Positions 2,693 to 25,103 are shown, counted from the stretch's first letter. The stretch: DNA of 64,000 nt from Phycisphaerae bacterium (GCA_963675745.2 CAXXWX010000003.1:210417-274416); one strand, 5' to 3'. Program-made: numbers and translations. The notes: generated by a model from the sequence alone, not told the origin.

Positions 2693-4798
2693 CTAGCCAC
2701 CCGCCAGCAGCGCGACAAACGGATCGACGTCGCCATTGTTGATCGTGCCGTCGTCGTTGATGTCAGCCGCCGCGGCGTCGCAGTCCGGGTACGCCAGAGC
2801 ATATGCATCGGGATCGGTCAACGCCAAGACGAACGGGTCGATGTCGCCGTTGTTCACCGCGCCGTCGCAATTGAGGTCGCCCAACTCCTGCGGGTCGCTC
2901 GTGATTGCCTCTCCACCGCCGAGCAGACACACGTCATCGATTTCGATGTCCGAGATCGGGCCATCAACGCCGAGCAACTCGAAGAGCATGCTGACCTGCG
3001 AGAGATCGACCGCGTCAGAGATGTCGGTCATGGGAATCTCGACCACGTGCCACTGTCCGTTACGAACGAAGCCGTACGGGTCGTTCCCGTTTTCGAACTT
3101 GATCCACTTCTGGCCAATATCGTCGACATTGCCGCTGCGCATACCAAGGAAGAACGGGGCCGTCGAACTGGTCTTCATCGCCAGGTGCAGCGTGCTTTCC
3201 GGGTAGCGAAAGGCCGTGAGGTTGTACTTGATCGTGGGTGTGAACGCCGCGCCAAACCAGGTCAGGCCCGGCGTCGAGTAGTACGACAGACTGGCGGAAC
3301 CCTCGAAGGGGGCTTGAACACCCGGCTGTAATGTGTTCTCCCAGATGTAAAACTCCCCGTCCACGCCGAGCGCGTATTCGCCGGCGGTCTTGTGGCTCGG
3401 ATCTTCGGTGAAGATGCCGAAACTCCCATTCTCCGGCGTCGCGCGCGCCACGCTTGGCGACCAATACACATTGTCGATCCCAAACTCGAAGGTGGCCGGC
3501 GGAGCATCGCCCGCGATCATGAACAGTTGATGGACGGTATTGAAATCGACGTTGAGGAACGCGTTCAGCGGGATGACCACTTCGTGCCAGTTACCGTCGC
3601 GCACCAGGCCGAACGACTGTTCGCCATCGATGAACTGTACCCAACTCTCACCCGCGGCCGAACTCTTGATGCCGATCTTGAATGGCGCCGTCGAGCTTGT
3701 CTTCATGTGCAAGTGCAGGTGACCGTCGGAGTAATTCTGCATGTTACGATCGATGTGTGAAAACACGCCCATGCCGAACCAAGCGCCGGCCGCGGCGGTC
3801 ATGTTCCACGCCTCACTACCCTCATACGCATCAACCGGCCCCGCGGTCAGGTTGTTCCATAAATACAGCGACGCATCAACATCGTACGTGACACTATTGT
3901 TGACCGTAGTAGTTTCTGTGAATACACCGAAGTTCTCTATCTCGGCGACATCTTCCCCGAAATACAGCTCCGTATCACCGTTGTCGTACAGACGTATGTA
4001 GTCAACGTACATTCGGCCCGGGAACGGGGCCGTGATCAACGCCGGATCAGTAATCTCGACGAAGTTCCAGCCACCAACCGATACATTGGCGATGATGTAC
4101 ATGGGCGCGTGGAATTCCTCGAGCGAGTGGGTCTCAATATCGCTGATGTCAATCTCCCAGAATTGGGTACCATCGACTGACGTGCGGATGTGCGTCGGTG
4201 TCCACTCCACGGCGAAGATGTGGTAGTCGTCATAGAGATCCACGGGCCAATCGATCGAGCCGCCGAAGTCAGCCTGGCTGCCCTCAAAATCCCAAAACAC
4301 GTGCGCCCCCACACGGCGGTTGACCACACCCGCAAGGAACGCGGCCCGACTGCCCACTTCCATAATGTCGAGCTCGCCGCAGCCCGGCCACGGAATCTGA
4401 CCGACGTTGTTGCCCAAGAGCCAGAAAGCGGGCCACATGCCATTGTCCACGTCGGGCAGCTTTATTCGCGCCTCGAGCGTGCCGTATTTGAACGCCATGC
4501 GCCCATGCGTCACCAGGCGTGAGGAGGTGAACTCCTTGCCACCCAGGAAGTTTTCGCGACGCGCTTCGATCACCAGATTGCCGCTTTCGATATACGCGTT
4601 TTCGGGGCGGGCGGTGTGATATTGCAGTTCACCGTTGCCGAAGCCGCTACCACCAACGTTGTACGTCCAGGTTGAATGGTCGATGTTGGGATCGGTGAAC
4701 TCGTCAGACCACACCAGCGTCTGGGCGCCGGCCAACGGCGAACTCACCAACAGTGCGGCGATCCCCAAGCCACACCACGCTACCTGTTGAACCTTCAT
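2693..4798 (-). CDS. Secreted GH16 (laminarinase-type) glycoside hydrolase with two repeated beta-sandwich/CBM-like modules and a C-terminal dockerin-like domain
   Basis: Signal peptide, LVWSDEF, GNGELQY, WPAFW and catalytic GELDIME. Two repeats of FGxFTE...WxN...WFG...LHLxMKTSSTAPF. Tail GDLNCDGAVNNGDIDPFV...DINDDGTINNGDVDPFVALL. Confidence 0.88.
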   Translation of the reverse strand: MKVQQVAWCGLGIAALLVSSPLAGAQTLVWSDEFTDPNIDHSTWTYNVGGSGFGNGELQYHTARPENAYIESGNLVIEARRENFLGGKEFTSSRLVTHGRMAFKYGTLEARIKLPDVDNGMWPAFWLLGNNVGQIPWPGCGELDIMEVGSRAAFLAGVVNRRVGAHVFWDFEGSQADFGGSIDWPVDLYDDYHIFAVEWTPTHIRTSVDGTQFWEIDISDIETHSLEEFHAPMYIIANVSVGGWNFVEITDPALITAPFPGRMYVDYIRLYDNGDTELYFGEDVAEIENFGVFTETTTVNNSVTYDVDASLYLWNNLTAGPVDAYEGSEAWNMTAAAGAWFGMGVFSHIDRNMQNYSDGHLHLHMKTSSTAPFKIGIKSSAAGESWVQFIDGEQSFGLVRDGNWHEVVIPLNAFLNVDFNTVHQLFMIAGDAPPATFEFGIDNVYWSPSVARATPENGSFGIFTEDPSHKTAGEYALGVDGEFYIWENTLQPGVQAPFEGSASLSYYSTPGLTWFGAAFTPTIKYNLTAFRYPESTLHLAMKTSSTAPFFLGMRSGNVDDIGQKWIKFENGNDPYGFVRNGQWHVVEIPMTDISDAVDLSQVSMLFELLGVDGPISDIEIDDVCLLGGGEAITSDPQELGDLNCDGAVNNGDIDPFVLALTDPDAYALAYPDCDAAAADINDDGTINNGDVDPFVALLAGG

Positions 4799-6946: not shown

Positions 6947-8062
6947 ATGGCGTCAGTTCGTGATATCGCCGAGCAGGCGGGCGTCTCAATCGCCACAGTA
7001 TCTCGCGCGCTGAACAATGATGCCGGCGTGAGCAGTAGTACGCGAGAACGCGTGCTCTCGATCGCCAATGGCGTTGGTTATGCGGCAACCGTTGGCCGGC
7101 GCGCGGCCAGCCATATTGGATTCGCCTACACCGGTGAGCAGAACTTCACCCATGCCTTTGAGGCCGCCGTACTGGAGGGTGTCGCCAAGGCCCTCGGCAG
7201 CAGCGGCCACAGCATGGTGCTGATGAACCTCAAACGTTCCAGGATGCCGGGTGAAAACTTCACACAGATGTTCATGCGCAACGGGGTGCGCGGCGTGATC
7301 TTGCGCGTGACGGCCGAATCTCGCGATCTGTGTCATGAGATCGCCGCCGAGCGCTTTCCGCATGTAGTTCTTGCGGAGCGATTCGAATCGCCCGACGTCT
7401 GCTGCATTGACTGCGATTCAAAGCCGGACAGCTTGCGAGCGGTCGAACACCTGATCGCACTTGGACACCGACGGATCGCGTTTGCGGTTCATAACGTACC
7501 AGACCGCGACCATCAGGACCGTTTTGAGGGCTATCGCGAGGCGCTGGCGCTGCACGACCTGCCGTTCGAGGCCAACTGGGTGTATCGGCAACCGGCGACG
7601 CTGTCCGGCGGCGCTACGGCGTTCAAGATGATCATGAGCGAGCCGAACCGCCCCACCGCGATCTACTTCGCCGACTGGCTGCCCGCGGTCGGCGCGATCA
7701 AAGCCGCCCATGAGTTGGGCGTACGTGTGCCCGACGGCATTTCGATTGTGGGGTTTGACGATGCGCACATGCGGCACACGGTGCATCCGCCGTTGACAGC
7801 CGTATGTCAGAACGCCATCCAACTGGGCAGCGAGGCAGCGTTGCGGTTATCGCAGATGCTGGCCGGACGTCGTCGCGCGCCGTTCCAGATTACACTGCCG
7901 AGTTTCTTCGAGATCAACGAATCCAGCGGCCCGCCCCCGGCCAGGCCGGAGCGCGTGAACCCCAACGGTCACAGCGCCGCGTACCGGCCGAGCGCGGGCG
8001 ACGTCGCCAGGGACACCACAGATTCAGCGGCTTCCGATGGTGCCGCTCGCCGAGACCCGTGA
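6947..8062 (+). CDS. LacI-family transcriptional regulator
   Basis: HTH SVRDIAEQAGVSIATVSRALN; LGHRRIAF; PTAIY; VPDGISIVGFDD; PPLTAV. SD GAGGAG upstream. Confidence 0.95.
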   Translation: MASVRDIAEQAGVSIATVSRALNNDAGVSSSTRERVLSIANGVGYAATVGRRAASHIGFAYTGEQNFTHAFEAAVLEGVAKALGSSGHSMVLMNLKRSRMPGENFTQMFMRNGVRGVILRVTAESRDLCHEIAAERFPHVVLAERFESPDVCCIDCDSKPDSLRAVEHLIALGHRRIAFAVHNVPDRDHQDRFEGYREALALHDLPFEANWVYRQPATLSGGATAFKMIMSEPNRPTAIYFADWLPAVGAIKAAHELGVRVPDGISIVGFDDAHMRHTVHPPLTAVCQNAIQLGSEAALRLSQMLAGRRRAPFQITLPSFFEINESSGPPPARPERVNPNGHSAAYRPSAGDVARDTTDSAASDGAARRDP

Positions 8063-8078
8063 CACCAGGAGCACAGCC

Positions 8079-9215
8079 ATGTCATCAACCAGACGGATTC
8101 ACGCCATGGCGCGACGGCGTTGCCGATTGCACCGACCGGCGTTCACCTTGATCGAGTTGCTAGTCGTTGTCGCAATCATCGCCTTGCTGATCTCGATTCT
8201 GCTGCCATCACTCGGCCGCGCCCGGGAGCAGGCGCGACTGGTGACCTGTCTTGCGCACATGCGCGGCACCGGGCAACTCGTCATGCTGTTCGCCAATGAC
8301 CACGACGGCCGCATGCAACTGACGTCCACGGAGTTTGCGGTCCAGAACGCCGACGCGTCGCGTTCGAAGTATGCCTACGGCGACAGCGGCGAATTGCTGG
8401 CCTGGCCGGTGGCGCTGGCGCAGGCCAACGGCCTGCCCATTCGCAACAACTGGGACTGGGGCGTGCGCGCCGACAACTACTTCTACGCAAAGGAACGCGA
8501 GAAATTCATCTCGAAACAATTCAAGCTCATGCAATGTCCATCGGACCGGGCGCGTATTGCAACGCCCTTCTTCTCACGCGGTGACGGTCTGCGCGGGGCA
8601 GGTAATCCGGACGACGATCACTCACAGGACAACAGCCCCGGGCCACGCACCGCTTATTGGGGCCTGTTGAGCTTTGCGATCAACGAGGACATCACCGGAG
8701 CTGAGTATTCGAGTCTGAATGCAACCTGGGGTTCCTGCTGGCGCGCGGTGTACAACGATGGTGAGTGGACTGAGTGCATCGGCGAAGAGCGCTATGGCCC
8801 CAGCAGCCCCTGCTTCGGCCGAAACGGCTTTCGCCTGCGCGGCGAGCTGGACAAGATCGAATCATCGGCAAACCTGATGCTGCTCGTCGATGCGGGTCCG
8901 GAAAACGACGCGATACCGACACAGGCGGAGGACGAGTGGACCCACGTGAACCTGATCCACAGCGGCGCGGGAGCCGAAGGTCCGTTTCTCGGCCACTCGC
9001 TGCAGGCCAATGCGTCAGCCACAGGGACGCGCGTACCCATGCGGCGGCACGTGGACGGCAATGTGAACGTGCTGTATGTCGACGGGCACGGCGCCACCGC
9101 CAAGATGGTCGAGACAAGTTCCGAGAACGCCTACAACGTCGAAGTACCGAAAAGATACGCCCCCCGCGTACGTGTGTCGCCATATTCGATGGGCAACATC
9201 AATGTTGACGATTAA
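8079..9215 (+). CDS. Prepilin-type N-terminal cleavage/methylation protein (DUF1559-like, H-X9-DG motif)
   Basis: AFTLIELLVVVAIIALLISILLPSLGRAREQAR..C; CPSD; RHVDGNVNVLYVDGH. AGGAG SD before ATG 8079. Confidence 0.88.
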   Translation: MSSTRRIHAMARRRCRLHRPAFTLIELLVVVAIIALLISILLPSLGRAREQARLVTCLAHMRGTGQLVMLFANDHDGRMQLTSTEFAVQNADASRSKYAYGDSGELLAWPVALAQANGLPIRNNWDWGVRADNYFYAKEREKFISKQFKLMQCPSDRARIATPFFSRGDGLRGAGNPDDDHSQDNSPGPRTAYWGLLSFAINEDITGAEYSSLNATWGSCWRAVYNDGEWTECIGEERYGPSSPCFGRNGFRLRGELDKIESSANLMLLVDAGPENDAIPTQAEDEWTHVNLIHSGAGAEGPFLGHSLQANASATGTRVPMRRHVDGNVNVLYVDGHGATAKMVETSSENAYNVEVPKRYAPRVRVSPYSMGNINVDD

Positions 9216-9491: not shown

Positions 9492-12400
9492 ATGTCTCAT
9501 ACCTTAACATCCAACTGGCGCAGCGCAGCTATTACCGCCGCACTGCTATCGCTGGCCTTCGGAGTAACCGCCGGGGCCGATTCCTTCTTCGAGAACTTTG
9601 ATGCGGCTACCGGCACGGGGGGCGGCATCTTTCTCGACGGCCGCGGCTTCAGCGCGCTGGAGGACTGGGACGACGGGCTGCTCAACGAGACGGCGTTCGG
9701 ATCGACTTCCGGGCATGCCAACGCCATTCTCTCGGCGCAGGGCGCGCCGGGCCTCGGCGTCAGCGGCGGCGCGGGACTCCTCGAGATTATCGACGTCAAT
9801 TTCAACTTCATCGATGAAGACTTCAGTTCAGTGACCGGCACTGGTGGCGGTGTGTTCCTGATCGGAGACGGAAACACCCCCGATCTCACCGGTTACACCG
9901 GAGCCTGGGATGACGGGCTCGGTGATGAGTTCGCGTTCTTCGGCACGGCCAACGGCGCGATTCTCGTCGGTGATGTGTCGGCCCAGGGCATTCCCGGTGG
10001 CGGCGCGACAGACGGCGGCGGACAGATGATCGTCAACAACGTCAATGTCACCGCCGGTGAGTGGTATGGCGGCCTGGCCTGGACGGTGCCCGGATTCCCC
10101 GCCGGTGCCGCTCCCGTGCTCGTCAACGGCGGATTCGATGTTGACGGGACCATCCCTCCGGGTGGCGACCCCACCATCACGGGCTGGACGCTGGGCGGCG
10201 ACGCGATGTGGTTCCAAGGTGGGCCGAGCTGGGAAGGCAGCGTGTACCTTGAACCCAGCCAGATGCCGCCAATCAGCCCGGCGCACGCGCTGAAGATCTG
10301 GTGCGCGTGGCAGGTTGGCTATCCAAATGAGTCGACGGTGTACCAGGACCTGGCCGCCACGGAAGGACAGACCTGGGAACTGGATTGCTTCGTGGCGAAC
10401 TACAGCGGCGACCCGTTGGCGACCAATAACACGGCCGAGATGCGGATCGAATTCTACGACCCCAATGACAACCTGCTGGGCACGCCCGCCGTGGCGACAA
10501 TCCTCACTGTCTCTGACCCGATCGACACCTGGATCGACGTGACGCCGCTGAGTGCGGTGGCTCCGGCCGGCACAGCCTACGCGCGCGCCGTGCTCGCTTA
10601 CGTCGCGCCGGTCGCACCGGCCGGCAATTGTGGTGCGGCGTTCATCGAAGATGTGACATTCGAGGTCACGGATGGGCCGCCGTCGTTCAATTTGGGTGAC
10701 TTCAGCCTGACGGCCGATGTGCGCGGCGAGGCGCTCGGCGCCGGCGAGCAGCTCGGCCACTACCAGTTGCGTCTGGAAGACTCGTCCGGTGGGCGCCTGG
10801 TCTTCACGTCCACTGCGGTCGCCGATCCGAACGCCTGGACGCCGATCGGCGGCACGCTTGATCTGGCCGATGAGCGTGATGCCAACGACGTGCCGACGCC
10901 CGGCGCGTTCGACCCGTCGTCCAGCAACTTCACGGTCGTGGTGGCGTTTGACAACAACCGCGCGACGACCTGGGGCACAGGCGGCACGCTTGAGGTCGAC
11001 AACATTCTGATGCCGAACACGGTTCAGACCGGCAGCGGCTACGTCGCAGGCCTGTACTGGGATGGCATCCCGGCCGAGGCCGAGGTCGATCCGCGCAACC
11101 TGCAGCTCACAGCCGATCTGCTCGGCGACGTCGCCGGCGGTGACTACCAGCTCCGCATGGAGGTCTTCGGCGACATCCCATACGTCAACGAGAACTTCAG
11201 CACCCTGACCGGCGAGGGTGGCGACCAGCTCAAGGCCCCGAACGACGAGAACGGCTATGTCGAGACGGGCGACTGGGATACGGGCATCGACTTCGAGTTC
11301 GGCTTTGCCGGTACGTTCGAAGGGGCCGTCGTGACGACACCCGCCGGCGGCATCTGGATTGAAGGCGACTTGGCCGAAGGGGCGGCGAAGCTCGAAGCAC
11401 ACGAGATCGCCGTCGGCGGCCTCGCGGGCTGGTATGTCGGCGCGGGGTGGCGCGATCAGGCGCTGGCCTCGACCGATCCGAATCTCGTCACGTTGACCGC
11501 CAGTATCAAGGGTGATGCCAGCGGCGCTCTGGAGTCGCTAGGCACAGTCCAGCTTCGCATCGAAGACCCCGATCTCGACTACATCGGATTTGAACAGATG
11601 GCGACAACTGGTTGGCAGCCCATCGGTGGCGCGCTCTCGACGACCAACGCTTCCGGCGCACTCGGCAGTGGCGACGGTGTGTTCGACTGGAACGCCGAAT
11701 CCTACACCGTTGCCGTCGTATTCGAGGGCACCGACTCCAACTGGAACTGGGGAGGCACGGTCTGGGTCGACAACGTGCAGATCACCGAACCCGCCAATCC
11801 GGTCCGCACGCAGCGCGGCCAGATCAGCTTCAGCGGGTCGGCCAACGGTTCTACATACGATAGCGTCGGCGGATTGCTGATCGACGGCGATTCGAGCTTC
11901 CCCCCGGTCGGCGGCGTGATCCAGGATGGCAACGCCAACTGGGAGCGCGGCATCGAGGGTGAGGCGGCGTTCTTCGGCGGCTGGCTGGCATCGATCGCTC
12001 AGGTTGAGGCACAGGGCTGCACGGATTGCGGCATGTCCGGCACTGGCGGCGCACAACTGATCGCCACCGGAATAACGCACGACGATCCGAACGGCACCTA
12101 CTGGGCCGGTCTGGCCTGGCACAACATCCCGATCGATATCAGTGACCCGAACCTGGTCCGCTTCACCGCGGATGTGAAGGGCGAGTGGGACACTTCGGGC
12201 GGCACGCTCGCCGGTTACACGGTCATCCGCCTCGAGGATGGCAACGGCGGTAACTTCGGCTTCGAGTTGCAAGCTGACGGTGCGTGGCACGCCATTGGCG
12301 GCACTATGAACACCGCCATTGACTACAACGGCTTTAACAAGGCCACCACGCAAGTCTCAGTCGTGCTGATTATCTACACGCACGATTCAGACGAGGGGCC

Positions 12401-12833
12401 GAACGCCACTATCTCGCTCGACAACCTGCGCCTTGAATACAACGACCCGGTCAACGGTTGGACCGATGTGCTCTACGAGAACTTCGATACAGCCGTCGGC
12501 CCGACGCCGGGCTATCTCGACGACGCGGGATCGTTCGACACGTACACGCTGGTGGCCACCATGGAGAATGGCCTGACGACGTGGCCGGCTGGTGGTTCGC
12601 TGCTGATCGACAATCTGTCGCTCGGTGGCCTGCCTCAGTACGAGTTGGGTGATCTGAACTGCGACGGTTTCGTCAACAACGGCGATATTGACGCGTTCGT
12701 TTTGGCGCTCAACGACCCCGGTGTGTATGCCAGCGCATATCCGGATTGCGATATCAATCTGGCGGACATCAACGACGACGGGTTCGTCAACAACGGTGAC
12801 ATCGACCCGTTTGTCGCATTGCTCAGTGGTTGA
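9492..12833 (+). CDS. Large secreted acidic protein: four homologous beta-sandwich-like domains (apparently nested), a CBM4/9-like insert and a C-terminal dockerin-like domain
   Basis: Signal peptide. Repeated motifs ENF..xTG.GG, WDxG, AGLxW, LTADxxG, LRxED, IGG and DNxxL. Tail GDLNCDGFVNNGDIDAFV...DINDDGFVNNGDIDPFVALL. No recognisable GH catalytic motif. Confidence 0.75.
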   Translation: MSHTLTSNWRSAAITAALLSLAFGVTAGADSFFENFDAATGTGGGIFLDGRGFSALEDWDDGLLNETAFGSTSGHANAILSAQGAPGLGVSGGAGLLEIIDVNFNFIDEDFSSVTGTGGGVFLIGDGNTPDLTGYTGAWDDGLGDEFAFFGTANGAILVGDVSAQGIPGGGATDGGGQMIVNNVNVTAGEWYGGLAWTVPGFPAGAAPVLVNGGFDVDGTIPPGGDPTITGWTLGGDAMWFQGGPSWEGSVYLEPSQMPPISPAHALKIWCAWQVGYPNESTVYQDLAATEGQTWELDCFVANYSGDPLATNNTAEMRIEFYDPNDNLLGTPAVATILTVSDPIDTWIDVTPLSAVAPAGTAYARAVLAYVAPVAPAGNCGAAFIEDVTFEVTDGPPSFNLGDFSLTADVRGEALGAGEQLGHYQLRLEDSSGGRLVFTSTAVADPNAWTPIGGTLDLADERDANDVPTPGAFDPSSSNFTVVVAFDNNRATTWGTGGTLEVDNILMPNTVQTGSGYVAGLYWDGIPAEAEVDPRNLQLTADLLGDVAGGDYQLRMEVFGDIPYVNENFSTLTGEGGDQLKAPNDENGYVETGDWDTGIDFEFGFAGTFEGAVVTTPAGGIWIEGDLAEGAAKLEAHEIAVGGLAGWYVGAGWRDQALASTDPNLVTLTASIKGDASGALESLGTVQLRIEDPDLDYIGFEQMATTGWQPIGGALSTTNASGALGSGDGVFDWNAESYTVAVVFEGTDSNWNWGGTVWVDNVQITEPANPVRTQRGQISFSGSANGSTYDSVGGLLIDGDSSFPPVGGVIQDGNANWERGIEGEAAFFGGWLASIAQVEAQGCTDCGMSGTGGAQLIATGITHDDPNGTYWAGLAWHNIPIDISDPNLVRFTADVKGEWDTSGGTLAGYTVIRLEDGNGGNFGFELQADGAWHAIGGTMNTAIDYNGFNKATTQVSVVLIIYTHDSDEGPNATISLDNLRLEYNDPVNGWTDVLYENFDTAVGPTPGYLDDAGSFDTYTLVATMENGLTTWPAGGSLLIDNLSLGGLPQYELGDLNCDGFVNNGDIDAFVLALNDPGVYASAYPDCDINLADINDDGFVNNGDIDPFVALLSG

Positions 12834-12861
12834 ACACGCTCAGCCTGAATGAGCGGATTCT

Positions 12862-12898
12862 GACGACCGCGCCCGGGGCAGCGCCCGGCGCGGTCGTC
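12862..12898 (+). terminator. Stem-loop after the large secreted protein gene
   Basis: GACGACCGCGCC (12862-12873) pairs with GGCGCGGTCGTC (12887-12898); weak U-tract. Confidence 0.45.
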
Positions 12899-13090
12899 TG
12901 TGTCTCCGATGCACGGAACCGCTGAACTGTTTTGAAGGGCCGCCGCCGGGTGTTAAACTGGAGGTAATCTCTTGTGGCGGTGGCAACGGGCAGTCAGAAG
13001 TCGTCGCCGGCGGGAAGACGCAGCACCGCCATAACGTGCTGGTGAACACACTCGCATTGCCGCGCCGTGCGGCGGGCCACGCGACACTCG

Positions 13091-14593
13091 ATGGAGTCCG
13101 ACGTGCATATCACTCGAATAACCGCGTTCATCCTGCTAACCGCGGCGCTATTACCGATCGCGACATCTCTGGCGGAGTACACGCTCGTCTGGTCGGACGA
13201 GTTCGACGGCCCGGACATCGATCCGGCCAACTGGGAGTTCATGTACGGCGACGGGAGCGACTACGGCAATCCGGGGTGGGGCAACAATGAGTGGCAGTGG
13301 TACACGGACCGTTCGGAAAACTGCTATATCTCCGGTGGGCAGATGCACATCGCCGCCCGGCGTGACTACTGGCAGGGGCATGAGTACACCTCCGCCCGGC
13401 TGCGCACGCTATATCGCGCCGACTTCCTCTACGGTCGTATCGAAGCGAGTATCAAGCTGCCATCGACGCAGGGCATCTGGCCGGCCTTCTGGATGCTGCC
13501 GACCGACTCGCCCTACGGCGGCTGGGCCGCCAGCGGTGAAATCGACATCATGGAGTCGATCAATACCGCGGACCGTGTTTACGGAACGATCCACTACGGC
13601 GGAACCTGGCCGGAAAATGTGCACTCCGGCGGCGACTACGCCGACGGTACGGACTACTCCGCGGACTTCCACACATACACGCTCCAATGGGAGCCCGACG
13701 CAATGCTCTGGTACGTTGACGGGCAGCTTTACTACGCCGTCACCAGCAGCGGCTGGTACAGCGACGCCGACCCGGGCAACACGCGGGCGCCGTTCGACAA
13801 TGCGTTCCACATGCTGCTGAATGTCGCGGTCGGCGGCAACTGGCCGGGCTATCCCGACGGGTCGAGCGTGTTCCCGCAGGAACTGGTCATCGACTGGGTG
13901 CGTATCTATCAGGACGAGGCCCCACCGCCCGAGCAGCAGCCATATCACGGCACACCGCTCGCCATTCCCGGCCGGATCGAACTTGAAGACTTCGACATCG
14001 GGGCGGACGGCGTCGCGTATCATGATTGCGACGCCGCCAACAACGGTGGCCAGTACCGGCCATCGAGCGGCGTTGATATCGAGGAGTGCGGCGAAGGCGG
14101 CTACAACGTGGGCTGGCTCTGCGAGACCGAGTGGCTCGAGTACACGGTCGATATCGCAATCCCCGGACCCTACATCGCCGAAGCGCGTGTCGCCTCGCAA
14201 TCCACCGGCGGGCCCTTCTCGCTGGAACTTGACGAAACGCCGATCAGTTCACCCTTTAACGTGCCCGTGACCGGTGGTTGGCAAACCTGGACGACGATCT
14301 CGCGCGAAGTAATCCTCAGCGCCGGTGAGCACGTGCTGAGGTTTGCAAACGGGGGGACATCCGAAGAGTACAACATCAACTGGCTGGCCTTTTACGCGTT
14401 TGCCGACATCAATCGCGATTTCGCCGTGGACGTGCTCGACCTGGGTCTGTCCACAGCCAGCCTCAGTGGACCGGATGACACGACTCCACCGGCCGGTGTG
14501 ACGCCCACGGAGTTTGCCAACAGCGACTTCGATGGCGATGGCGACGTGGATGTGCTCGATGCCGCCGAGTTCCAGTATCTACTGGGAAGTTGA
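13091..14593 (+). CDS. Secreted GH16 laminarinase with CBM6 and C-terminal EF-hand/dockerin-like pair
   Basis: LVWSDEF, GWGNNEWQWY, WPAFWM and catalytic GEIDIMES. CBM6 signature IPGRIELEDFD...GEGGYNVGW...TGGWQTW. Tail DINRDFAVDVLD...DFDGDGDVDVLDAAEFQ. Confidence 0.9.
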   Translation: MESDVHITRITAFILLTAALLPIATSLAEYTLVWSDEFDGPDIDPANWEFMYGDGSDYGNPGWGNNEWQWYTDRSENCYISGGQMHIAARRDYWQGHEYTSARLRTLYRADFLYGRIEASIKLPSTQGIWPAFWMLPTDSPYGGWAASGEIDIMESINTADRVYGTIHYGGTWPENVHSGGDYADGTDYSADFHTYTLQWEPDAMLWYVDGQLYYAVTSSGWYSDADPGNTRAPFDNAFHMLLNVAVGGNWPGYPDGSSVFPQELVIDWVRIYQDEAPPPEQQPYHGTPLAIPGRIELEDFDIGADGVAYHDCDAANNGGQYRPSSGVDIEECGEGGYNVGWLCETEWLEYTVDIAIPGPYIAEARVASQSTGGPFSLELDETPISSPFNVPVTGGWQTWTTISREVILSAGEHVLRFANGGTSEEYNINWLAFYAFADINRDFAVDVLDLGLSTASLSGPDDTTPPAGVTPTEFANSDFDGDGDVDVLDAAEFQYLLGS

Positions 14594-14692: not shown

Positions 14693-16597
14693 CTATTCGA
14701 GGCAGCCGGGGGCGTTGTCCGGTCCACGCAGGCAATCGAGGACGCCACTCAGATCGGCGCCATTGAGCGTGTCGTCCACAACGAACTCAAACACACTTCC
14801 ACAGACGCCGGCGGCGTCCGCGCCTAGGCAGACCTGGAATTCGGCGACATCGAGCACATCCACGTCGCCGTCACCGTCGAAATCAGCGGCGTCGTAGGCC
14901 AGCTCCTGTGCCAACACACTGACGGCCAGCCGCGGGTGCAGGATGTCGGGGGCGGCACCGTTGTCTTCCACGGCGAAGAGCCCCCACCACTCTTCGTTGG
15001 AGTAGCCGTCCGGGTGAAACCGCGTGCCATATCCGCCGGCATCGTGCGTGGTGGGCGAGTCGGCTTTCCACCATTCATCACTGTAGGCCATCAGTGAGCC
15101 GCCGGCGCAGTTGGCCTTGATTTGCCGCCATTGGCGGCGGATGTATTCGGCGTGTACGTCCTGATACTCGGTTTGTGTGCGGTTATCGAGGGCGTCAATT
15201 CCATACTCGGTGAAGATCAGCGGTTTGTCGGTCAGACGCTCGTAGTAGTCGAAGTAGCAGTGGGCGTCAGCGCCGAAGTAGGTGTTGTGCCCCCACATAT
15301 CGACGTAGTCGAGCGACACGTCATCCGAACCGAGAGCCGTGTCGCCGACATCCCACAGGCCCGCGTTCGTCACGATCGTCGGATGGTATAACGCCCCTTC
15401 CTCCTCCCAGGCAATCTCAGCCAGGCGGTTGGCCAGCGCAAACCAATGCGGCAGCATCTCGGTCGAGACATTGAAATTGACTTCGTTGCCGATCCCCCAG
15501 CCCAGCACAGCCGGATGATCCTTGAATTGCCGGACAAACGCGCGGAAGTGGCTCTCATAATACGCGATCGTGCCTGGATCGCTGTAGTCATCAAGTCCGT
15601 TCTGTGGAATCCAGAAGCCGATGATGGCGTAGATCGGCTCGGCGGCGTCATAGTACAGGGCGTCGAGCAGGGTTGTGTCCGGCGGGGGCGACCACGTGCG
15701 GATCGTATTCAGGTTCAGAGTCTCAAAACAGGCCAGATCGCGCGCGATGATCGCCGGGTCTGTAAATACGGAGTATTCGCTTGGCCAGTACCCGATCGGT
15801 GTCGGAGCATAGCCGACGCTCTTGACGGTGAACGGCGCGCCGTTGACAAAAAGGCGGCGTCCCACGACTTGCACCGGCCCCGTGCTCGGCGGCTTCGCGC
15901 TGGGGGCTTTTTGAAACCGCTCCGCCGACCAGACATACTCGGCGTACGCTTCGGAGTCAGAGAACTGCCAATCGAAGAACCGCAGTTCGTCGACCACACC
16001 CTCGCCATATCCGTGATAGCCCGTGTAACCGACTTGCAGTAAGCCGGCGACCGGCGTGCGCGTGCCGTCCAATGAGGCCCACTGCGCGATGCGGCCGTTC
16101 ACGAAAATCCAGAGCACGCAACGGCCGGGCGTACACTCCCAAGCGGCGGCCACATGAGTCCACTCGCTCTCGGACAGCAGGTCCGGCACGGCCGCTTGCA
16201 GTAGATTGCCGTCGTCGTCGCGCATCTCGAATACGAGATAGTCGTCGGCGACGTAAAACAGCCCGAGGCTACGCGGCTGACCGATCGTGCCGAGCTGCAC
16301 AATACCGCCGTCCGTGTCGGCGGAGTTCTTGCGAAACCAGAAGGTCAGCGTGCCGGCCTCGGCCACAAAGGCGCTGTCAGCGTAGATGATGTACTGACTG
16401 CCGGAGAACGAGGCGCCGTTCCCATTAACGGCGGGCGTGAACTGCAACGTCCCGCTGATGAAACCACCATTGGCCTCAACGCCGGCGCTGGTCTCCAGTC
16501 CGTCGTAGCGCACGGCGCAGTCGGCCGCGGCAAGCGGCGTGAAGAGCCCGCTCAACGCCAGGGCCACAAGCATGACAACGCGCGGGTAACCCATCAT
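14693..16597 (-). CDS. Secreted LamG/ConA-like domain + clan GH-A TIM-barrel glycosidase (GH2/GH158-like) + EF-hand/dockerin-like tail
   Basis: LamG motifs WTHVAAAW, IFVNG, GVVDELRFFD. NTIRTW; acid/base WGIGNEVN; nucleophile KPLIFTEYGIDA; YSDEWWK. Tail DFDGDGDVDVLDVAEFQ. Exact family not resolved. Confidence 0.75.
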   Translation of the reverse strand: MMGYPRVVMLVALALSGLFTPLAAADCAVRYDGLETSAGVEANGGFISGTLQFTPAVNGNGASFSGSQYIIYADSAFVAEAGTLTFWFRKNSADTDGGIVQLGTIGQPRSLGLFYVADDYLVFEMRDDDGNLLQAAVPDLLSESEWTHVAAAWECTPGRCVLWIFVNGRIAQWASLDGTRTPVAGLLQVGYTGYHGYGEGVVDELRFFDWQFSDSEAYAEYVWSAERFQKAPSAKPPSTGPVQVVGRRLFVNGAPFTVKSVGYAPTPIGYWPSEYSVFTDPAIIARDLACFETLNLNTIRTWSPPPDTTLLDALYYDAAEPIYAIIGFWIPQNGLDDYSDPGTIAYYESHFRAFVRQFKDHPAVLGWGIGNEVNFNVSTEMLPHWFALANRLAEIAWEEEGALYHPTIVTNAGLWDVGDTALGSDDVSLDYVDMWGHNTYFGADAHCYFDYYERLTDKPLIFTEYGIDALDNRTQTEYQDVHAEYIRRQWRQIKANCAGGSLMAYSDEWWKADSPTTHDAGGYGTRFHPDGYSNEEWWGLFAVEDNGAAPDILHPRLAVSVLAQELAYDAADFDGDGDVDVLDVAEFQVCLGADAAGVCGSVFEFVVDDTLNGADLSGVLDCLRGPDNAPGCLE

Positions 16598-17875: not shown

Positions 17876-18940
17876 CTAACTGTCCAGCGCCGCCGCCGTC
17901 GGCGCATCAGCATCGACCGGCGAAGACGCCGCAACCCGGCGCGACCCCGCCGGCGGGGCCGTGGACTGGTTGATCTCGAGGAACGTGCGCGTCGTCTTCT
18001 GAAGACCGCCCGTGTCCTGTCCTTTGACGGTCCGAGACAGCCAGCGTCCCGCTTCGTAGCCGAGCGCACCCGCATCCTGACAGACGGCGGTCAGCGTCGG
18101 GTAAACGCTGTGGCGCATGTTGCTGTCGTCGAACCCGATGATCGACATGTCGTCCGGCACACGAACGCCGAGTTGCTGCGCCTTGTTCACGGCCCCGACC
18201 GCCAGCAGCGGGTCAGCGAAGTAGATCGCCGTGGGCGGGTCGATCATGCTCTGCGCCAGCTTCATAACCGTCGCCCCGCCCGCCAGCGAGATTTTCTGCC
18301 GGAAGACAAGACGCTCGTCGAACGGCAGATTGTGGTTATCCAACGCTGACTTGTATCCGGCCATGCGGTCAATGTGGTCACGGTCGGTGACGGTGTGCGT
18401 GGCGAACGCGATGCGCTGGTGGCCGAGCGCGATCAGATACTCGATGGCGCGGGTACTGTCGGCCATGGAGTCGTAGTCGATGTAGTTCGTGTCGGGCGAG
18501 TCAAAGCGCTCGCTGATCACGACGTGCGGGAATCCCTCGCGCGCAATCGCGCCGCACACATCGCGCGTCTTCGCCGTCGTGCGCAGGACAACACCGCGCA
18601 CCCCCTTGCGCATGAAGAACTGCGTGTAGGTCTCGTCCTGCTCTTTGTCACGCTGAAGATTGAGGATTACCACGTCAAAGCGGCACTCGTCGAGGCCGCG
18701 CACGACGCCGTGCAGAACCGCCGCATCGAACGCATCGGCGAGGGTGGATTCGGCGGTATAGGCGAAGGCGATGTTGGTGGTGACGCGCCGGCCGATGGTC
18801 GGGACATAGCCGAAGCGGTTGGCGATTGCCAGGACCCGCGCGCGCGTATCCGGATTGACCGCGGAGTCATTGTTCAGCGCCCTGGATACGGTGCTGATGG
18901 AGACACCGGCTTCTTCGGCGATTTTCCGAACGGATGCCAC
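17876..18940 (-). CDS. LacI-family transcriptional regulator (paralog of 6947-8062)
   Basis: GTG start at 18940 gives (M)ASVRKIAEEAGVSISTVSRALNND, matching the paralog's start. Shares FMRxGVRGV, ERFxSPD, PTAIYFAD and GFDD. Confidence 0.93.
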   Translation of the reverse strand: MASVRKIAEEAGVSISTVSRALNNDSAVNPDTRARVLAIANRFGYVPTIGRRVTTNIAFAYTAESTLADAFDAAVLHGVVRGLDECRFDVVILNLQRDKEQDETYTQFFMRKGVRGVVLRTTAKTRDVCGAIAREGFPHVVISERFDSPDTNYIDYDSMADSTRAIEYLIALGHQRIAFATHTVTDRDHIDRMAGYKSALDNHNLPFDERLVFRQKISLAGGATVMKLAQSMIDPPTAIYFADPLLAVGAVNKAQQLGVRVPDDMSIIGFDDSNMRHSVYPTLTAVCQDAGALGYEAGRWLSRTVKGQDTGGLQKTTRTFLEINQSTAPPAGSRRVAASSPVDADAPTAAALDS

Positions 18941-18987
18941 GGCACGCTCGCCACTGTTGGTTCGACAACGTTCTTGGAAACAGTTCT

Positions 18988-19035
18988 TGAAACAGTTGCA
19001 GGGTTTAGTGTACGATGTCGATCGCGGCAGGTCAA
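18988..19035 (-). promoter_or_regulatory. Sigma70-type promoter of LacI gene 2 with adjacent operator candidate
   Basis: Minus strand TTGACC (19035-19030), 17 nt, TACACT (19012-19007). TGAAACAGTTGCA at 18988-19000, with a weaker GGAAACAGTTC just downstream. Confidence 0.62.
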
Positions 19036-19246
19036 GTGTTTTTTCGCCCTTGACGCACAGGATGACGAACAACCGGTTTCGACCATAACCTCGTGTAGGA
19101 AAAAGAGATGTGTGAAAGCCCTGACGCCGTTGCCACGCGATCGGCACGCACACCCGCCTCGCAATCCCGGAGATAGCGCATCGGCCGAGCTGACCGCCAC
19201 CAAACGCATCGCGTCAGTGTCGCACCGCCGAGCTTTGACCGTGACG

Positions 19247-21655
19247 ATGGGAAGTGCTGCACTGCATCTGCTTACGCTCGGGCTGTTGGCTGCGACTGCG
19301 GGTGCGGCTGTGTCTCCGCCCGACGACCAGCGAGCGTTGTCGTTTGTGATGGACGGCGCGTGGCGTGGCGACGGCATCTGTTATGGCCCCCACCGCGATG
19401 GTCAGCGGCCCGGTGGCCCTGGACCGTCATCGGAACAGCTACGCGAAGACCTGCGCATCATGCGGCCGCATTGGCGTATCTTTCGGCTCTACGCCGTCGG
19501 CGATGAGACTGAGACAGTCCTGCGCACAATCCGCGACGAGCACCTCGGCATGAAGGTCTTGCTCGGCGCCTGGATCGATCCTGAACAGCCCGGCGACAGC
19601 GAACATCCCGATGCGCAAACGCAGGCCCGTAATCGCCGACAGCTCGAACTGGCCGGGCAGCTCGCAAACCGCTATCCCGAAGTCGTGCTCGGCATCAGCG
19701 TGGGGAATGAAACACAGGTCTCCTGGTCATCCCATCGTGTCCGCCCGGAAGTACTGGTCGCCTACGTTCGCCAAGTCCGGGCGACGACAAGCGTGCCGAT
19801 CACCGTCGCCGACGACTACACTTTCTGGCTCGAACCGCGGGCGGCGCAATTGGCACGCGAAGTCGACTTCATTCACGCGCACATTTACGCCATGTGGCGC
19901 GGCAAGACCCTGGACGAAGCGCTCCCGTTCACACAGATGCAGTACGCCGCCCTGACGACGCATTATCCCAAACACCCGATCATCATCGGTGAGCTCGGCT
20001 GGGCGACACAGATGCACAGCGCCGGCGACCAGGCCAAGTACATCAAAGGTCGCGCGGGCATGGCAGAGCAGACGGCGTTCTATGATGCGTTTCTGACTTG
20101 GGCGCGGCGTAAGCGCGTAGCGCACTTCTGGTTTGAGGCTTTTGACGAGAATTGGAAGGGTGGCCCGCACCCCAATGAGGTGGAGAAGCACTGGGGTGTG
20201 TTCAACTCGGACCGCTCACCCAAGGCCGCCATGCAGCCGATGGCCGTCTGGGCGCGCCGCGTGCGAGCGCTGGATTGGATCTGTTACTCCCCTACCAACG
20301 CCGACCCGGATGCGGGTCAAATGCCGACGATCGAGTCGATCCGCGCTGACCTCGCGGCGTTGCGGACCGCCGGATTCAGCGGCTTGATCACGTATGGCTC
20401 AGACGGGGTCCGCGGGCGCGACCTGCCCAAGCTGGCGGTGGATGCCGGCTTCAGTGGCCTGATCATGGGCGTGTGGGACCCGACAAGCGCCGAAGAGCTT
20501 GCCGCCGCCCGGAACGCGGCGCAGCTTGACGAGGTATACGGCTATTGCGTCGGAAACGAGGGGCTGCGCGGCCGGTACAAGATGGATGCGCTGCGCAACG
20601 CGATCGCCGAGCTGAAGCGCGCTACCGGCAAACCCGTTACCACAACGGAGGAAATCGACGACTACGCCGACCCCGCGTTGCGCGCGGTTGGTGACTGGGT
20701 GTTTCCCAACGCGCATCCGGTTTTCCACGGCCGTGTTGATCCCGATCGCGCGGCGGATTGGACGGTCGGCGCGTATGATGAACAGGTGCGCCTGTGCAAG
20801 AACTGGGTCTGGTTCAAGGAAGTGGGGTTGCCGACCGGCGGCGACGAGAACGGCATCCTGTCCCCCGCCGCGCAGGTCAAGTACTACACGGCTCTGGCCA
20901 AGACCCCGGTCATCTTCGCGTATTTCGAGGCGTTCGATCAGCCCTGGAAGGACTGGCGGCCATTTGAAACCCAGTGGGGGCTCTTTACCGCCGAGCGGGA
21001 GCCCAAGCTCCTGGCCAGGCAGTTGATCAAGTCAGGCTTTCCCGAGCGCGGCGTTCACGTGCAGTCCCGGTCGGCGGCGGCCACCGAAACCGACACGCCA
21101 CGCCGCGCGACCCCGTTCTGGGTCTATCGCGACGCGGAGTCTCCCGAGAACCACTTCGAGCCGAGCGGCCTCGACGGTGACACCGGCGACGTGATGATAG
21201 ATGCCCATGTCAGCGACCGGCCTCACTCCGGAACAACCTGTTTGAAGCTCGTCTATACGGCCAAGGGCACCGGGCCGCACAAGTGCGCGTACGACCCGCC
21301 CTGTCGGTGGGCGGGGATTCGCTGGCTACACCCGGCGAAGAACTGGGGCGACAAGGAAGAGCACGCCGGCGCCGGATTCGATCTGCGCGGTTATCATCGA
21401 CTGACATTCTGGGCCCGCGCCGACAAGCCGACACGGGCACAATTCATGGTCGGTGGTCTCGATACGCCATACGGCGACTCGCTCGCATACCCGCACGCCC
21501 TGGTTGCCGAGCTCGAAACAACGTGGCGTCAGTTTGAAATCGACTTGAAAGCCGGCGATCTAAGCCACATTATCGCCGGCTTCGGATGGAGCACGAATTG
21601 GGATTTGAACCCCGACGGTTGCTGCATTTACCTGGATGACATCCGCTTTGAGTAA
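19247..21655 (+). CDS. Secreted tandem GH17-GH17 beta-1,3-glucanase/transglycosylase with C-terminal CBM11-like domain
   Basis: Domain 1: GICYGP, VGNE, IGELGW, FWFEAFDENWK, EKHWG. Domain 2: WICYSP, VGNE, FKEVGLP, YFEAFDQPWK, ETQWG. C-terminal WAGI.W...FDL.GY.RLTFWAR...IYLDDIRFE. Start may be 19112 or 19247. Confidence 0.85.
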   Translation: MGSAALHLLTLGLLAATAGAAVSPPDDQRALSFVMDGAWRGDGICYGPHRDGQRPGGPGPSSEQLREDLRIMRPHWRIFRLYAVGDETETVLRTIRDEHLGMKVLLGAWIDPEQPGDSEHPDAQTQARNRRQLELAGQLANRYPEVVLGISVGNETQVSWSSHRVRPEVLVAYVRQVRATTSVPITVADDYTFWLEPRAAQLAREVDFIHAHIYAMWRGKTLDEALPFTQMQYAALTTHYPKHPIIIGELGWATQMHSAGDQAKYIKGRAGMAEQTAFYDAFLTWARRKRVAHFWFEAFDENWKGGPHPNEVEKHWGVFNSDRSPKAAMQPMAVWARRVRALDWICYSPTNADPDAGQMPTIESIRADLAALRTAGFSGLITYGSDGVRGRDLPKLAVDAGFSGLIMGVWDPTSAEELAAARNAAQLDEVYGYCVGNEGLRGRYKMDALRNAIAELKRATGKPVTTTEEIDDYADPALRAVGDWVFPNAHPVFHGRVDPDRAADWTVGAYDEQVRLCKNWVWFKEVGLPTGGDENGILSPAAQVKYYTALAKTPVIFAYFEAFDQPWKDWRPFETQWGLFTAEREPKLLARQLIKSGFPERGVHVQSRSAAATETDTPRRATPFWVYRDAESPENHFEPSGLDGDTGDVMIDAHVSDRPHSGTTCLKLVYTAKGTGPHKCAYDPPCRWAGIRWLHPAKNWGDKEEHAGAGFDLRGYHRLTFWARADKPTRAQFMVGGLDTPYGDSLAYPHALVAELETTWRQFEIDLKAGDLSHIIAGFGWSTNWDLNPDGCCIYLDDIRFE

Positions 21656-21661
21656 GCTCTG

Positions 21662-23146
21662 ATGCGGCAGTTCAAGAAAGCCCTGCAAACCGCCATCGGC
21701 AGCGCCATGTTGCTGGCCGCATTGGGGCTCGTCGCATTCGGGCCGCGCTCGACGCGCCCCGACGCCGGCGGCCGTACGGTCGTCCGCTACTGGGAGAAGT
21801 GGACCGACTTTGAAGGCGAGGCGATGCGCCGGCTGGTCGGCGTATTTAATGATACGGTCGGGCGCGAGCGCGGCATCTTCGTTGACTACCAGACCACGAC
21901 GCAGATTGATTTGAAAGCGCTGGTTGCCGTATCCGGCGGTGATCCGCCTGACCTGGTGGGTCTCTGGCAACACAACGTCACCAGCTTTGCGTCCAGAGGC
22001 GGGTTGCTGGCACTCGACGAGCGCGCCGCCGCCGCGGGCATCACGGCGGACATGCTCATCCCGATCTACTTCGAGCCCTGCCACTATCACGGCCGCTTGT
22101 ACGGCCTGCCGCTCACGCCGTGGTCGATCGCCCTTTACTACAACAAAGACCTCTTCGCCGAATTCGGCGAGCAGTTGCGTGCCGCCGGCTATGACCCCAA
22201 TCGCCCGCCGCGTACGCTGGATGAGCTCGCCGGCTATTCGCGCGTGATCCACCGCCGCGACAAAAACGGCGACATCACGCTGATGGGTTATCTGCCCGGC
22301 GCCCCGGCCCCATCCATCGCCTGGTACTGCCACACCTGGCCGATCTGGTTCGGCGGGTCGTTCTATGACGCCGATGCGCAGACAGTGCCGGTCGCAAGCG
22401 ATATCTCCATCCGCGCGCACGAGTGGGTACGTGATTTCGAGCAGCAGTTTGGTGTGGCCGACGTACAGAAATTCGAATCGGGCCTCTCGAACTTCAATTC
22501 GCCGGACAATCCGTTCATGAGCGGGCGGCTGGCAATGATGCGCCAAGGACCGTGGTTTGCGAACATGATCCGCCAGTATGCACCCAATCTGAACTGGGCG
22601 GCGGCGCCGTTCCCCACGCACGACGGGAGCGAGATCAGCTTCTGTGGCCAGGACGTGCTCGTCATCCCCGATGGGGCACACCACCCCGACGAGGCCTGGG
22701 CGTTCATCGAATGGCTGTTGACCGGCCCGCCCGTCAACGTCCCATCGGGCCAGGCCACGCCACAGCGGGGCTACGAGTATTACGAGGCAAGAACGCCCGA
22801 CGGCATCGAGCGCCGCCCGATGCCGCCGCTGCGGCCGATCGAGTGGATTTGCTGGATTCACTACAAAAACAGCCCCCTGGTGAACCCGTCGCCCGAGTTC
22901 ATCGAGACACACCCCAGTCCGGCGCTGGCGATCCACGAGCGCTTGGCGCGCCTGCCCGGTGCGCAAACCGAGCCGGGGCTACCCAACTGGATACAGCTCA
23001 GTTCGGAGCTGATCCAGACGTACGCCGACATCTGGGCAACCGGAGCGCCGGTGCGGCCGCGGCTGGAAAGCTGTCAGCAACGCATTGACACCCTCATCGA
23101 GCTCGCCCGCCGACAACAGGCGCGCCTCGGGGAGCAATACCCATGA
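21662..23146 (+). CDS. Carbohydrate ABC transporter substrate-binding protein
   Basis: N-terminal TM anchor; YWEKWTDFEG; GGDPPD; LYGLP..LYYNKDLF; PPRTLDEL; FMSGRLAM..QGPW. Confidence 0.88.
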   Translation: MRQFKKALQTAIGSAMLLAALGLVAFGPRSTRPDAGGRTVVRYWEKWTDFEGEAMRRLVGVFNDTVGRERGIFVDYQTTTQIDLKALVAVSGGDPPDLVGLWQHNVTSFASRGGLLALDERAAAAGITADMLIPIYFEPCHYHGRLYGLPLTPWSIALYYNKDLFAEFGEQLRAAGYDPNRPPRTLDELAGYSRVIHRRDKNGDITLMGYLPGAPAPSIAWYCHTWPIWFGGSFYDADAQTVPVASDISIRAHEWVRDFEQQFGVADVQKFESGLSNFNSPDNPFMSGRLAMMRQGPWFANMIRQYAPNLNWAAAPFPTHDGSEISFCGQDVLVIPDGAHHPDEAWAFIEWLLTGPPVNVPSGQATPQRGYEYYEARTPDGIERRPMPPLRPIEWICWIHYKNSPLVNPSPEFIETHPSPALAIHERLARLPGAQTEPGLPNWIQLSSELIQTYADIWATGAPVRPRLESCQQRIDTLIELARRQQARLGEQYP

Positions 23147-24072
23147 GTGATCCGCGCGGTGCCACTGCAACCAATCGGCGTGACACGCTCACGGGTGTGC
23201 TGTGGATCAGCCCCTGGATCATCGGCTTCTCGGTCTTCATTCTGCTGCCCGTGATCATGTCGGCGTATCTGAGCTTCTGCACGTTTGACGGCGTACGCCG
23301 GCCGATCTTCACCGGTCTCGAAAACCTCTCCACGCTGATCGCTGATCCGCGCTTCTGGAAAGTCCTGAAGAACACGGCGATTTACGCCGCCGTCTCCCTG
23401 CCGGTCGGAACGGTGCTGGCGATCACCATCGCCATTCTGCTCAACCAGCGCGTCCCGGGCCGCGCCCTGTGGCGCGCGATGATCTTTGTGCCGACGCTCG
23501 TCCCACTGGTGGCCTCCGCCATGATCTGGATGTGGATGTTCAATGCCAGCCACGGCCTGATCAACGCCCTGTTTCGCCTGCTCAACTATCTACCGTTTGT
23601 CTCCGGCGTCGATGGACCAAGCTGGTTGACCAGCCAGTACTGGACGATGCCGTCGATGATCCTGCTGAGCTTCTGGGCGATCGGCCATCCGGTGGTGATC
23701 TACCTGGCCGGTTTGCAGGACGTTCCGCGGAGTCTCTATGAAGCGGCTCACGTGGACGGTGCAGGCCCGGGTCAACGTCTCTGGCACGTCACCCTGCCGA
23801 TGATCTCGCCGACCATCTTTTTCAACGTGGTGATGGGCATCATCTATGTCTGGCAGGTGTTCGCCATACCACAGATCATGCTCGAAGGTGGCGGTCCCGG
23901 CCGGAATGCTTATTTCTACACCATGTACCTCTATGACGTGGCGTTTCGCGATTTGCGTTTTGGTTACGCCTGCCTGCTGAGTTGGGTGCAACTGCTGATC
24001 ATCCTGGGCCTCACGGCGCTGGCGTTTCGGCTCAGCAAGAACCTGGTTCACTATCGGGGGGCAGCGCGATGA
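23143..24072 (+). CDS. Carbohydrate ABC transporter permease (MalF/UgpA-like)
   Basis: Multiple TM helices; EAA motif IYLAGLQDVPRSLYEAAHVDGAG; ATGA overlap with the upstream gene. Confidence 0.93.
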   Translation: MSDPRGATATNRRDTLTGVLWISPWIIGFSVFILLPVIMSAYLSFCTFDGVRRPIFTGLENLSTLIADPRFWKVLKNTAIYAAVSLPVGTVLAITIAILLNQRVPGRALWRAMIFVPTLVPLVASAMIWMWMFNASHGLINALFRLLNYLPFVSGVDGPSWLTSQYWTMPSMILLSFWAIGHPVVIYLAGLQDVPRSLYEAAHVDGAGPGQRLWHVTLPMISPTIFFNVVMGIIYVWQVFAIPQIMLEGGGPGRNAYFYTMYLYDVAFRDLRFGYACLLSWVQLLIILGLTALAFRLSKNLVHYRGAAR

Positions 24073-24977: not shown

Positions 24978-25103
24978 CTCGGCCCGGAATTGAGCCGCGC
25001 CGAGCACTGCCCGGCGCGACCACGACGCAGCTACAATGATGAAAGGGATTATTTGGTGTCCACAACTTTCGACTTGATACAACGCGCGAGCGGCGATCTG
25101 AGC

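Follow-up and report, generated by a model that had tools for sequence, protein, structure and literature searches.

The DNA stretch analysed here, 64,000 nucleotides (nt) of a Phycisphaerae bacterium (GCA_963675745.2 CAXXWX010000003.1:210417-274416; the window), carries a gene whose product of 1113 amino acids (aa) is almost certainly built of four copies of an unclassified domain of ~205 aa, with copies 2, 3 and 4 cutting copy 1 into four pieces. The first-pass annotation of the window had described such an arrangement from a motif order occurring four times, and all ten motifs could be located four times in the expected places. Copy 1 is called the hub below, and its interrupted loops the sockets. 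The gene and its parts are as follows.

9492..12833, +, open reading frame (ORF) of the nested-domain protein, 1113 aa; of its 49 homologues, 46 are full length
9492..9578, +, Sec-type signal peptide read from the sequence, aa 1-29, cut after AGA, without lipobox
9579..9803, +, hub (copy 1) piece 1, repeat positions ~2-80; detected in 99/101 relatives
9804..10100, +, N-terminal part of copy 2 by profile, repeat positions ~2-95, in hub socket 1, which is empty in three-copy relatives
10113..10670, +, CBM4/9-like module inside copy 2, aa 208-393; by hhalign to a profile of CBM_4_9 hits
10680..11021, +, C-terminal part of copy 2 by profile, repeat positions ~100-205
11022..11174, +, hub piece 2, positions ~81-130, with YVAGLYW, LTADL and LRME; detected in 92/101
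11175..11795, +, copy 3 by alignment, intact, in hub socket 2
11805..11900, +, hub piece 3, positions ~131-162, with QISF and YDSVGGLL; detected in 90/101
11901..12500, +, copy 4 in hub socket 3, circularly permuted, first strand shifted to 12459-12500
12501..12632, +, hub piece 4, positions ~170-205, with YTLV, TWPAGG and LLIDNL; detected in 93/101
12639..12830, +, dockerin-like double EF-hand module; the family profile matches solved dockerins (best E 1.7e-5)

Order of the domain copies

Copy 1 was reassembled from aa 30-104, 513-561, 773-803 and 1004-1047, guided by the first-pass annotation, and aligned pairwise with copy 2 (aa 105-203 and 397-510), copy 3 (aa 562-768) and copy 4 (aa 808-1003), giving z values of 10-28 (300 shuffles per pair). 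Because this reassembly had followed the earlier claim, the order was also tested independently, using a profile made from the intact copies 3 and 4 only, at a lenient per-domain threshold, on 101 non-redundant four-copy relatives (<90% identical). The nine pieces, in the order hub 1, copy 2a, insert, copy 2b, hub 2, copy 3, hub 3, copy 4 and hub 4, were complete in 73/101 relatives and present as a subsequence in 97/101; the remaining four did not fit the labelling. Collinear host pieces are thus found around complete homologous inserts, and relatives with an empty insertion site exist as three-copy and single-domain forms, so that the splitting of copy 1 is borne out at the sequence level. 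Self-BLASTP of the protein returned the diagonal alone, and DNA repeats are short and 60-89% alike; the duplications are therefore old.

The module interrupting copy 2 had been described as resembling carbohydrate-binding module (CBM) families 4 and 9, and this was confirmed by profile comparison with Pfam CBM_4_9 hits (hhalign 98.5%, E 2e-15; reversed control 0.4%). Pfam CBM_4_9 gave weak sub-cut-off matches to the insert in 8/40 relatives scanned, over the cut-off in 0/40, and none in this protein; NCBIfam returned nothing on the protein except a sub-threshold NTTRR-F1 match on the insert, and a PDB sequence search with the insert gave chance matches only. We read it as a CBM4-like module outside the filed CBM4/9 membership. 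A fifth copy of the repeat was ruled out (repeat against insert, hhalign 0.6%).

Natural variants and evolutionary history

Variants among living relatives are, at the level of sequence, the strongest evidence for nesting. In the three-copy relatives (P0051, P0052, P0063, P0068, P0070, P0071, P0157, P0158) hub positions 1-129 are contiguous, and socket 1 is therefore empty. The domain is also found as a single copy, tagged with PEP-CTERM or a dockerin, as a row of three (P0093, P0097), and C-terminal to a complete catalytic domain of glycoside hydrolase (GH) family 5 in P0088. Short homologues were missed by a word-based search (none among 8000 candidates) and found by an exhaustive one. Low-scoring repetitive matches in P0099 (TPR), P0126, P0131, P0132 and P0133 were dismissed as chance.

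The circular permutation predicted for copy 4 is real and polymorphic in the family, since its ENF strand lies at the C-terminal end in this protein (E996, 12477) and in 26/101 relatives, but at the N-terminal start in 60/101 (15/101 ambiguous). A quick tree of 47 proteins, 20 of them permuted, grouped 19 of these in one clade and left P0029 apart. The single-domain and three-copy forms are unpermuted, from which we infer that the permutation is derived.

A fourth socket is provided by the loop between TW and LLIDNL in hub piece 4. The last hub strand is missing from its usual place in 8/101 relatives and in seven of these lies behind the dockerin, with scores of 14-27 bits against a background maximum of 5.5 (87 proteins); in these seven the dockerin is therefore plugged into the fourth hub loop. 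Such plug-ins occur in at least three parts of the tree. The retention of a 13-residue strand across a 60-residue insertion would be difficult to account for unless the hub pieces fold together. The inserted dockerin is flanked by two cysteines (C-termini of P0004, P0005, P0006, P0007, P0017, P0018 and P0035); a disulfide between them could close its termini and make it an insertable unit.

Named homologues belong to Phycisphaerae or other Planctomycetota. Of 401 genomes sampled from the class, 14 carried the repeat, counting this one; they include 9/22 from its own family and 2/22 from a sister family. In a fast tree of a subset of 88 repeats, the hubs of three- and four-copy proteins formed one clade (SH-aLRT 94.7) and copy 4 another (97.2), while copy 3 was split. 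Since the inserts share a longer loop which the hubs and single-domain forms lack, the data tentatively suggest that one insert came first and was then duplicated into further loops. Living relatives preserve the single domain, the three-copy hub, the four-copy hub, the permuted arm and the dockerin in the fourth loop, so that the order and tolerance of domain insertion become directly testable.

Locus context and putative glycan capture

The neighbouring genes are given below, with their recurrence in 37 genome loci where counted.

2693..4798, -, second GH16 protein
6947..8062, +, LacI-family regulator; in 31/37 loci
8076..9215, +, prepilin-type N-methylation protein; in 31/37 loci
13067..14593, +, GH16-CBM6-dockerin protein; match in 21/37 loci
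14693..16597, -, LamG plus GH-A barrel; best solved relative GH158, E 1e-8
18374..21655, +, GH17-containing ORF, probably starting further downstream than given
21662..24977, +, sugar ABC transporter, binding protein and two permeases
24990..28223, +, homologue of GH161 beta-1,3-glucan phosphorylase; E 2e-181 to solved GH161

With two GH16 proteins, a GH158-like protein, a GH17 protein, a sugar ABC transporter and a GH161 homologue, the locus is by its gene content of the beta-1,3-glucan type, going by the usual substrates of these GH families. The beta-glucan context seen in the first-pass annotation was thus recovered. Among 57 loci that were typed, 41 were glucan loci, nine were mannan loci (GH5, GH130 and GDSL esterase markers), two were mixed and five marker-free. 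Proteins of the seven mannan-type loci with a scored protein were 58-74% identical to the paralogue on contig 23 of the same genome, and those of glucan-type loci at most 45%; the mannan-locus proteins fall into a single clade, marked by clade-specific W/Y residues that lie chiefly in the insert and in copies 3 and 4. 'Glucan' as a ligand label therefore agrees with the context of this gene and is too narrow for the family. The paralogue itself (G000:C23:80608-84033, -; L069/L070) lies in a mannan-type locus with GH5, GH130, an SSF transporter, GDSL esterases, PEP-CTERM and LacI.

Two further window genes have CBM-like features. At 5286-6761 a secreted protein combines a CBM4-like module, an unclassified central domain with a GH16-like E-x-D-x-E motif and a dockerin-like tail, and had no match in Pfam or NCBIfam; its count of 23 loci was set aside, as the CBM4-like module matches the insert and confounds it. 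At 16731-17450 (-) there is a single-domain PEP-CTERM protein with a CBM-like motif order, outside the repeat family.

The repeat itself probably folds as a beta-sandwich of the CBM-like jelly roll type. Profile comparison gave 35-66% with CBM11-like and 7-51% with CBM4-like profiles (reversed controls at most 2%), and Atlas neighbours of copy 3 include CBM_4_9, CBM27, Exop_C and SGBP_B_XBD clusters at 0.90-0.92. CBM11, CBM4 and galactose-binding-domain-like jelly rolls share with it the motif order, the strand ladders and a remote profile likeness over the C-terminal ~110 positions; unlike them, it has an extra N-terminal region (TG.GG / WD.G..GE.AF) lacking an aligned counterpart. The residues W31, E38, F41, W/Y85-86, R127, E129 and W190, kept in all four copies of most relatives, are candidate binding-site residues.

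Non-catalytic glycan capture by the protein appears likely, and the nested architecture and such multivalent capture are, taken jointly, still reasonably probable. The ~205-aa beta-sandwich unit would have adjacent termini, so that one copy could be inserted within a loop on the surface of a second. Copy 1 would form a discontinuous hub from three loops of which copies 2, 3 and 4 hang, each by two short linkers, and the CBM4-like module would hang from copy 2, giving a particle that branches, with as many as five sugar-binding modules, and not a string of beads. The protein would keep beta-1,3-glucan close to the cell for the GH16, GH17 and GH158-like enzymes encoded nearby; the oligosaccharides would enter via the ABC transporter and then be cleaved by the GH161 homologue.

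Several results speak against capture. Pfam had no match on the protein and assigned the repeat to no family when 50 intact copies of it and 23 single-domain members were scanned; 0/50 repeats matched any Pfam CBM family, CBM11 and CBM4 included, at the cut-off. The profile likeness to CBMs stays below 70%, and hhalign of the repeat gave 0.2% with the C-terminal domain of the GH17 protein and 5% with P0122. A PDB sequence search for the repeat had no match, including any solved enzyme, and the search with the full alignment returned dockerins, EF-hands and chance-level matches only. Copy 4 of this protein is without W190, the invariant acidic residues are compatible with an enzyme too, and the match of clade to locus type is a single evolutionary event, with some loci near-duplicates.

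An alternative makes sugar binding secondary: the protein would chiefly serve the co-encoded prepilin-like protein as a structural or adhesive partner, or else act as scaffold to the dockerin-bearing enzymes. The prepilin gene recurs in more loci than any glycanase does and directly follows LacI on the same strand in 26 of the 30 loci having both, and neighbours bear dockerin-like tails. LacI, however, is equally constant, so the co-occurrence may reflect regulon structure; the aromatic residues vary with the substrate type of the locus, and no cohesin match was found in the protein. We consider this role unlikely, and about equally so an enzyme with several active sites, in which the repeat would be a jelly roll with catalytic activity (glycanase, lyase or transglycosylase). 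E38, R127 and E129 hardly vary in any copy, nor does D130 in copies 2-4, the loci are glycan-degrading, and a family match that would fix the function is missing; yet the domain is appended to the complete GH5 of P0088, its closest profile likenesses are non-catalytic CBM families, and solved enzymes gave no match. A second prepilin-type protein, with a weak DUF1559 match, was seen upstream at L071:8374-9324, adjoining a triple CBM4-like protein.

The annotation had the protein tethered by its dockerin. The tail has the duplicated EF-hand-like repeat of cellulosomal dockerins, matching solved dockerins, with Pfam Dockerin_1 above the cut-off in 5/40 relatives. Against tethering, the genome (91% complete) holds 211 dockerin-like ORFs by our own profile and one marginal cohesin match, which is partial (25.3 bits, cut-off 24.1) and whose carrier itself ends in a dockerin-like module; moreover, relatives replace the dockerin with IPTL-CTERM or PEP-CTERM tags (P0070 ends in IPTL-CTERM). 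A cohesin-dockerin 'planctosome' has been proposed in other Phycisphaerae as a hypothesis only, in the accessible text of PMC6461901. Surface association of the family appears likely, tethering by the dockerin unsupported.

The proposed analogy to SusD (surface glycan-binding protein A, SGBP-A) holds only loosely. Both would be non-catalytic proteins conserved in glycan loci. Unlike SusD, the protein is predicted to be all-beta and has no lipoprotein signal (lipobox-like motif in 0/83 relatives), no SusD Pfam match (SusD_RagB profile) was found in the genome, and no SusC-type partner or other TonB-dependent transporter was seen among the recurrent neighbours examined, where ABC and SSF transporters occur instead; the one TonB barrel match of the genome lies on another contig. 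SGBP-B would be the better functional analogue. In the accessible text of their sources, the Bacteroidota SGBP-B and multi-CBM proteins (BtSGBP-B and BuSGBP-B, PMC7974029; Cf-SGBP, 10.1101/2023.09.07.556657) are, as this protein would be, non-catalytic, of several beta-sandwiches, from beta-1,3-glucan loci with GH16 partners, but are tandem elongated strings in SusC/D loci, whereas the present protein, from Planctomycetota, would be nested and branched, without lipobox, beside ABC or SSF transporters. Lacking lipobox and susD, it does not belong to SGBP-B, a surface lipoprotein beside a susC/susD pair, and this leaves a claim of similar working unaffected.

Probable assembly of the hub and comparison with other nested proteins

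It is very likely that the four hub pieces assemble in space as one discontinuous domain. Each keeps the hydrophobicity pattern of the intact copies (rho 0.73-0.78), with equal mean conservation. Mean-field coevolution on 404 pooled repeats gave antiparallel coupling ladders (41-45/84-88, 87-92/178-183, 123-131/174-185, 109-114/195-200) and placed residue 4 beside 91 and 107 beside 202, which in our own reading fits a jelly roll with its N- and C-termini side by side. Contacts derived from copies 2-4 alone were over-represented between the hub pieces when only hub sequences were used (21 pairs, p 2.5e-3; mutual information z 1.0). Three results count against this assembly: some of the cross-copy coupling controls were positive too (z up to 0.58, p down to 0.002), the hub data are thin at an effective 86 sequences, and P0003 has no last hub strand anywhere. 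As the controls reach z 0.58, coevolution lends the hub modest support.

Coupling of copy 1 with copies 2 or 3 above background would also suit a protein of the same nesting whose pieces swap strands with the inserted copies, leaving no discrete hub, for which parts of RNA polymerase Si3 offer a precedent in the accessible text of PMC11515920. Hub-hub coupling was, however, the strongest of seven pairings, copies 3 and 4 are complete and contiguous, the hubs of three- and four-copy proteins are one clade in the fast tree, and empty-socket forms exist, so that we regard strand swapping as quite improbable. That the pattern stems from misassembly, or from motifs matching by chance in a protein rich in Gly and Asp, as might be suggested by the low-complexity composition and by the finding that no single contig of the sequencing runs examined spans the whole gene (one run, perhaps that of the source sample, spans it as abutting contigs), has a negligible chance, being refuted by the order common to the 101 relatives and by the shuffle z values.

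For the discontinuous hub, the inferred strand order would place the exit of copy 2 at one pole and those of copies 3 and 4 and the dockerin at the other. Over 101 proteins three of the junctions vary by 2-4 residues and those flanking copy 4 by 27-35, so that rigidity, which the annotation had assumed, is plausible for part of the particle only. More doubtful is a wider reading in which the hub is a plug-in scaffold: four loops of one small beta-sandwich would take any domain with adjacent termini, such as its own copies or a dockerin, giving a rigid star-shaped glycan trap of five sites, its arms retuned per substrate, which together with the prepilin-like protein would form a SusC/D-independent capture system of Planctomycetota.

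As far as the accessible text of the sources goes, HABAS/SBHM domains of cyanobacterial RNA polymerase Si3 are inserted into each other and partly swapped (PMC11515920, PMC10895346, PMC13114784), and close termini are reported as a requirement for inserts (PMC13114784). Si3 thus resembles the present protein in homologous domains recursively inserted into their own copies with branching nodes, but it is an unrelated small fold in a core enzyme, whereas here a ~205-aa domain of a secreted protein would form one hub with three inserts of the same family and has living one-, three- and four-copy forms. Nesting within one family is already known from Si3; new here are the domain family and the unusually complete living intermediates. 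In the GH148 enzyme EngU, by the accessible text of PMC5725463, a CBM4-type module with adjacent termini is inserted into a host domain without long linkers; that host is a TIM barrel enzyme, while here it is a putative binding module, itself an insert. The literature covered, mostly the main texts of openly available papers, held no description of this protein, domain or self-nested CBM hub; related cases may stand in the ECOD insertion tables of PMC13114784.

The repeat, which stands for a domain family so far unclassified, is a candidate for a new CBM, and its variants from glucan and mannan loci can be compared. The protein offers a lead on polysaccharide capture without SusC/D in Phycisphaerae, and a multivalent display scaffold for protein design.

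A promoter and terminator scan of the gene gave chance-level results only. Two RNA libraries contain identical pieces of it of 224-258 nt, which does not demonstrate transcription. At L007 (around 9977-13290) the nested gene is broken across several frames, probably by sequencing frameshifts. The short relative P0076 retains one full copy and the last hub piece besides two incomplete pieces at its N-terminal end, either by a real deletion or by a repeat-collapse misassembly. At L037:9314-14767 two adjacent three-copy paralogues with differing C-terminal tails follow LacI, prepilin and a double CBM4-like protein.

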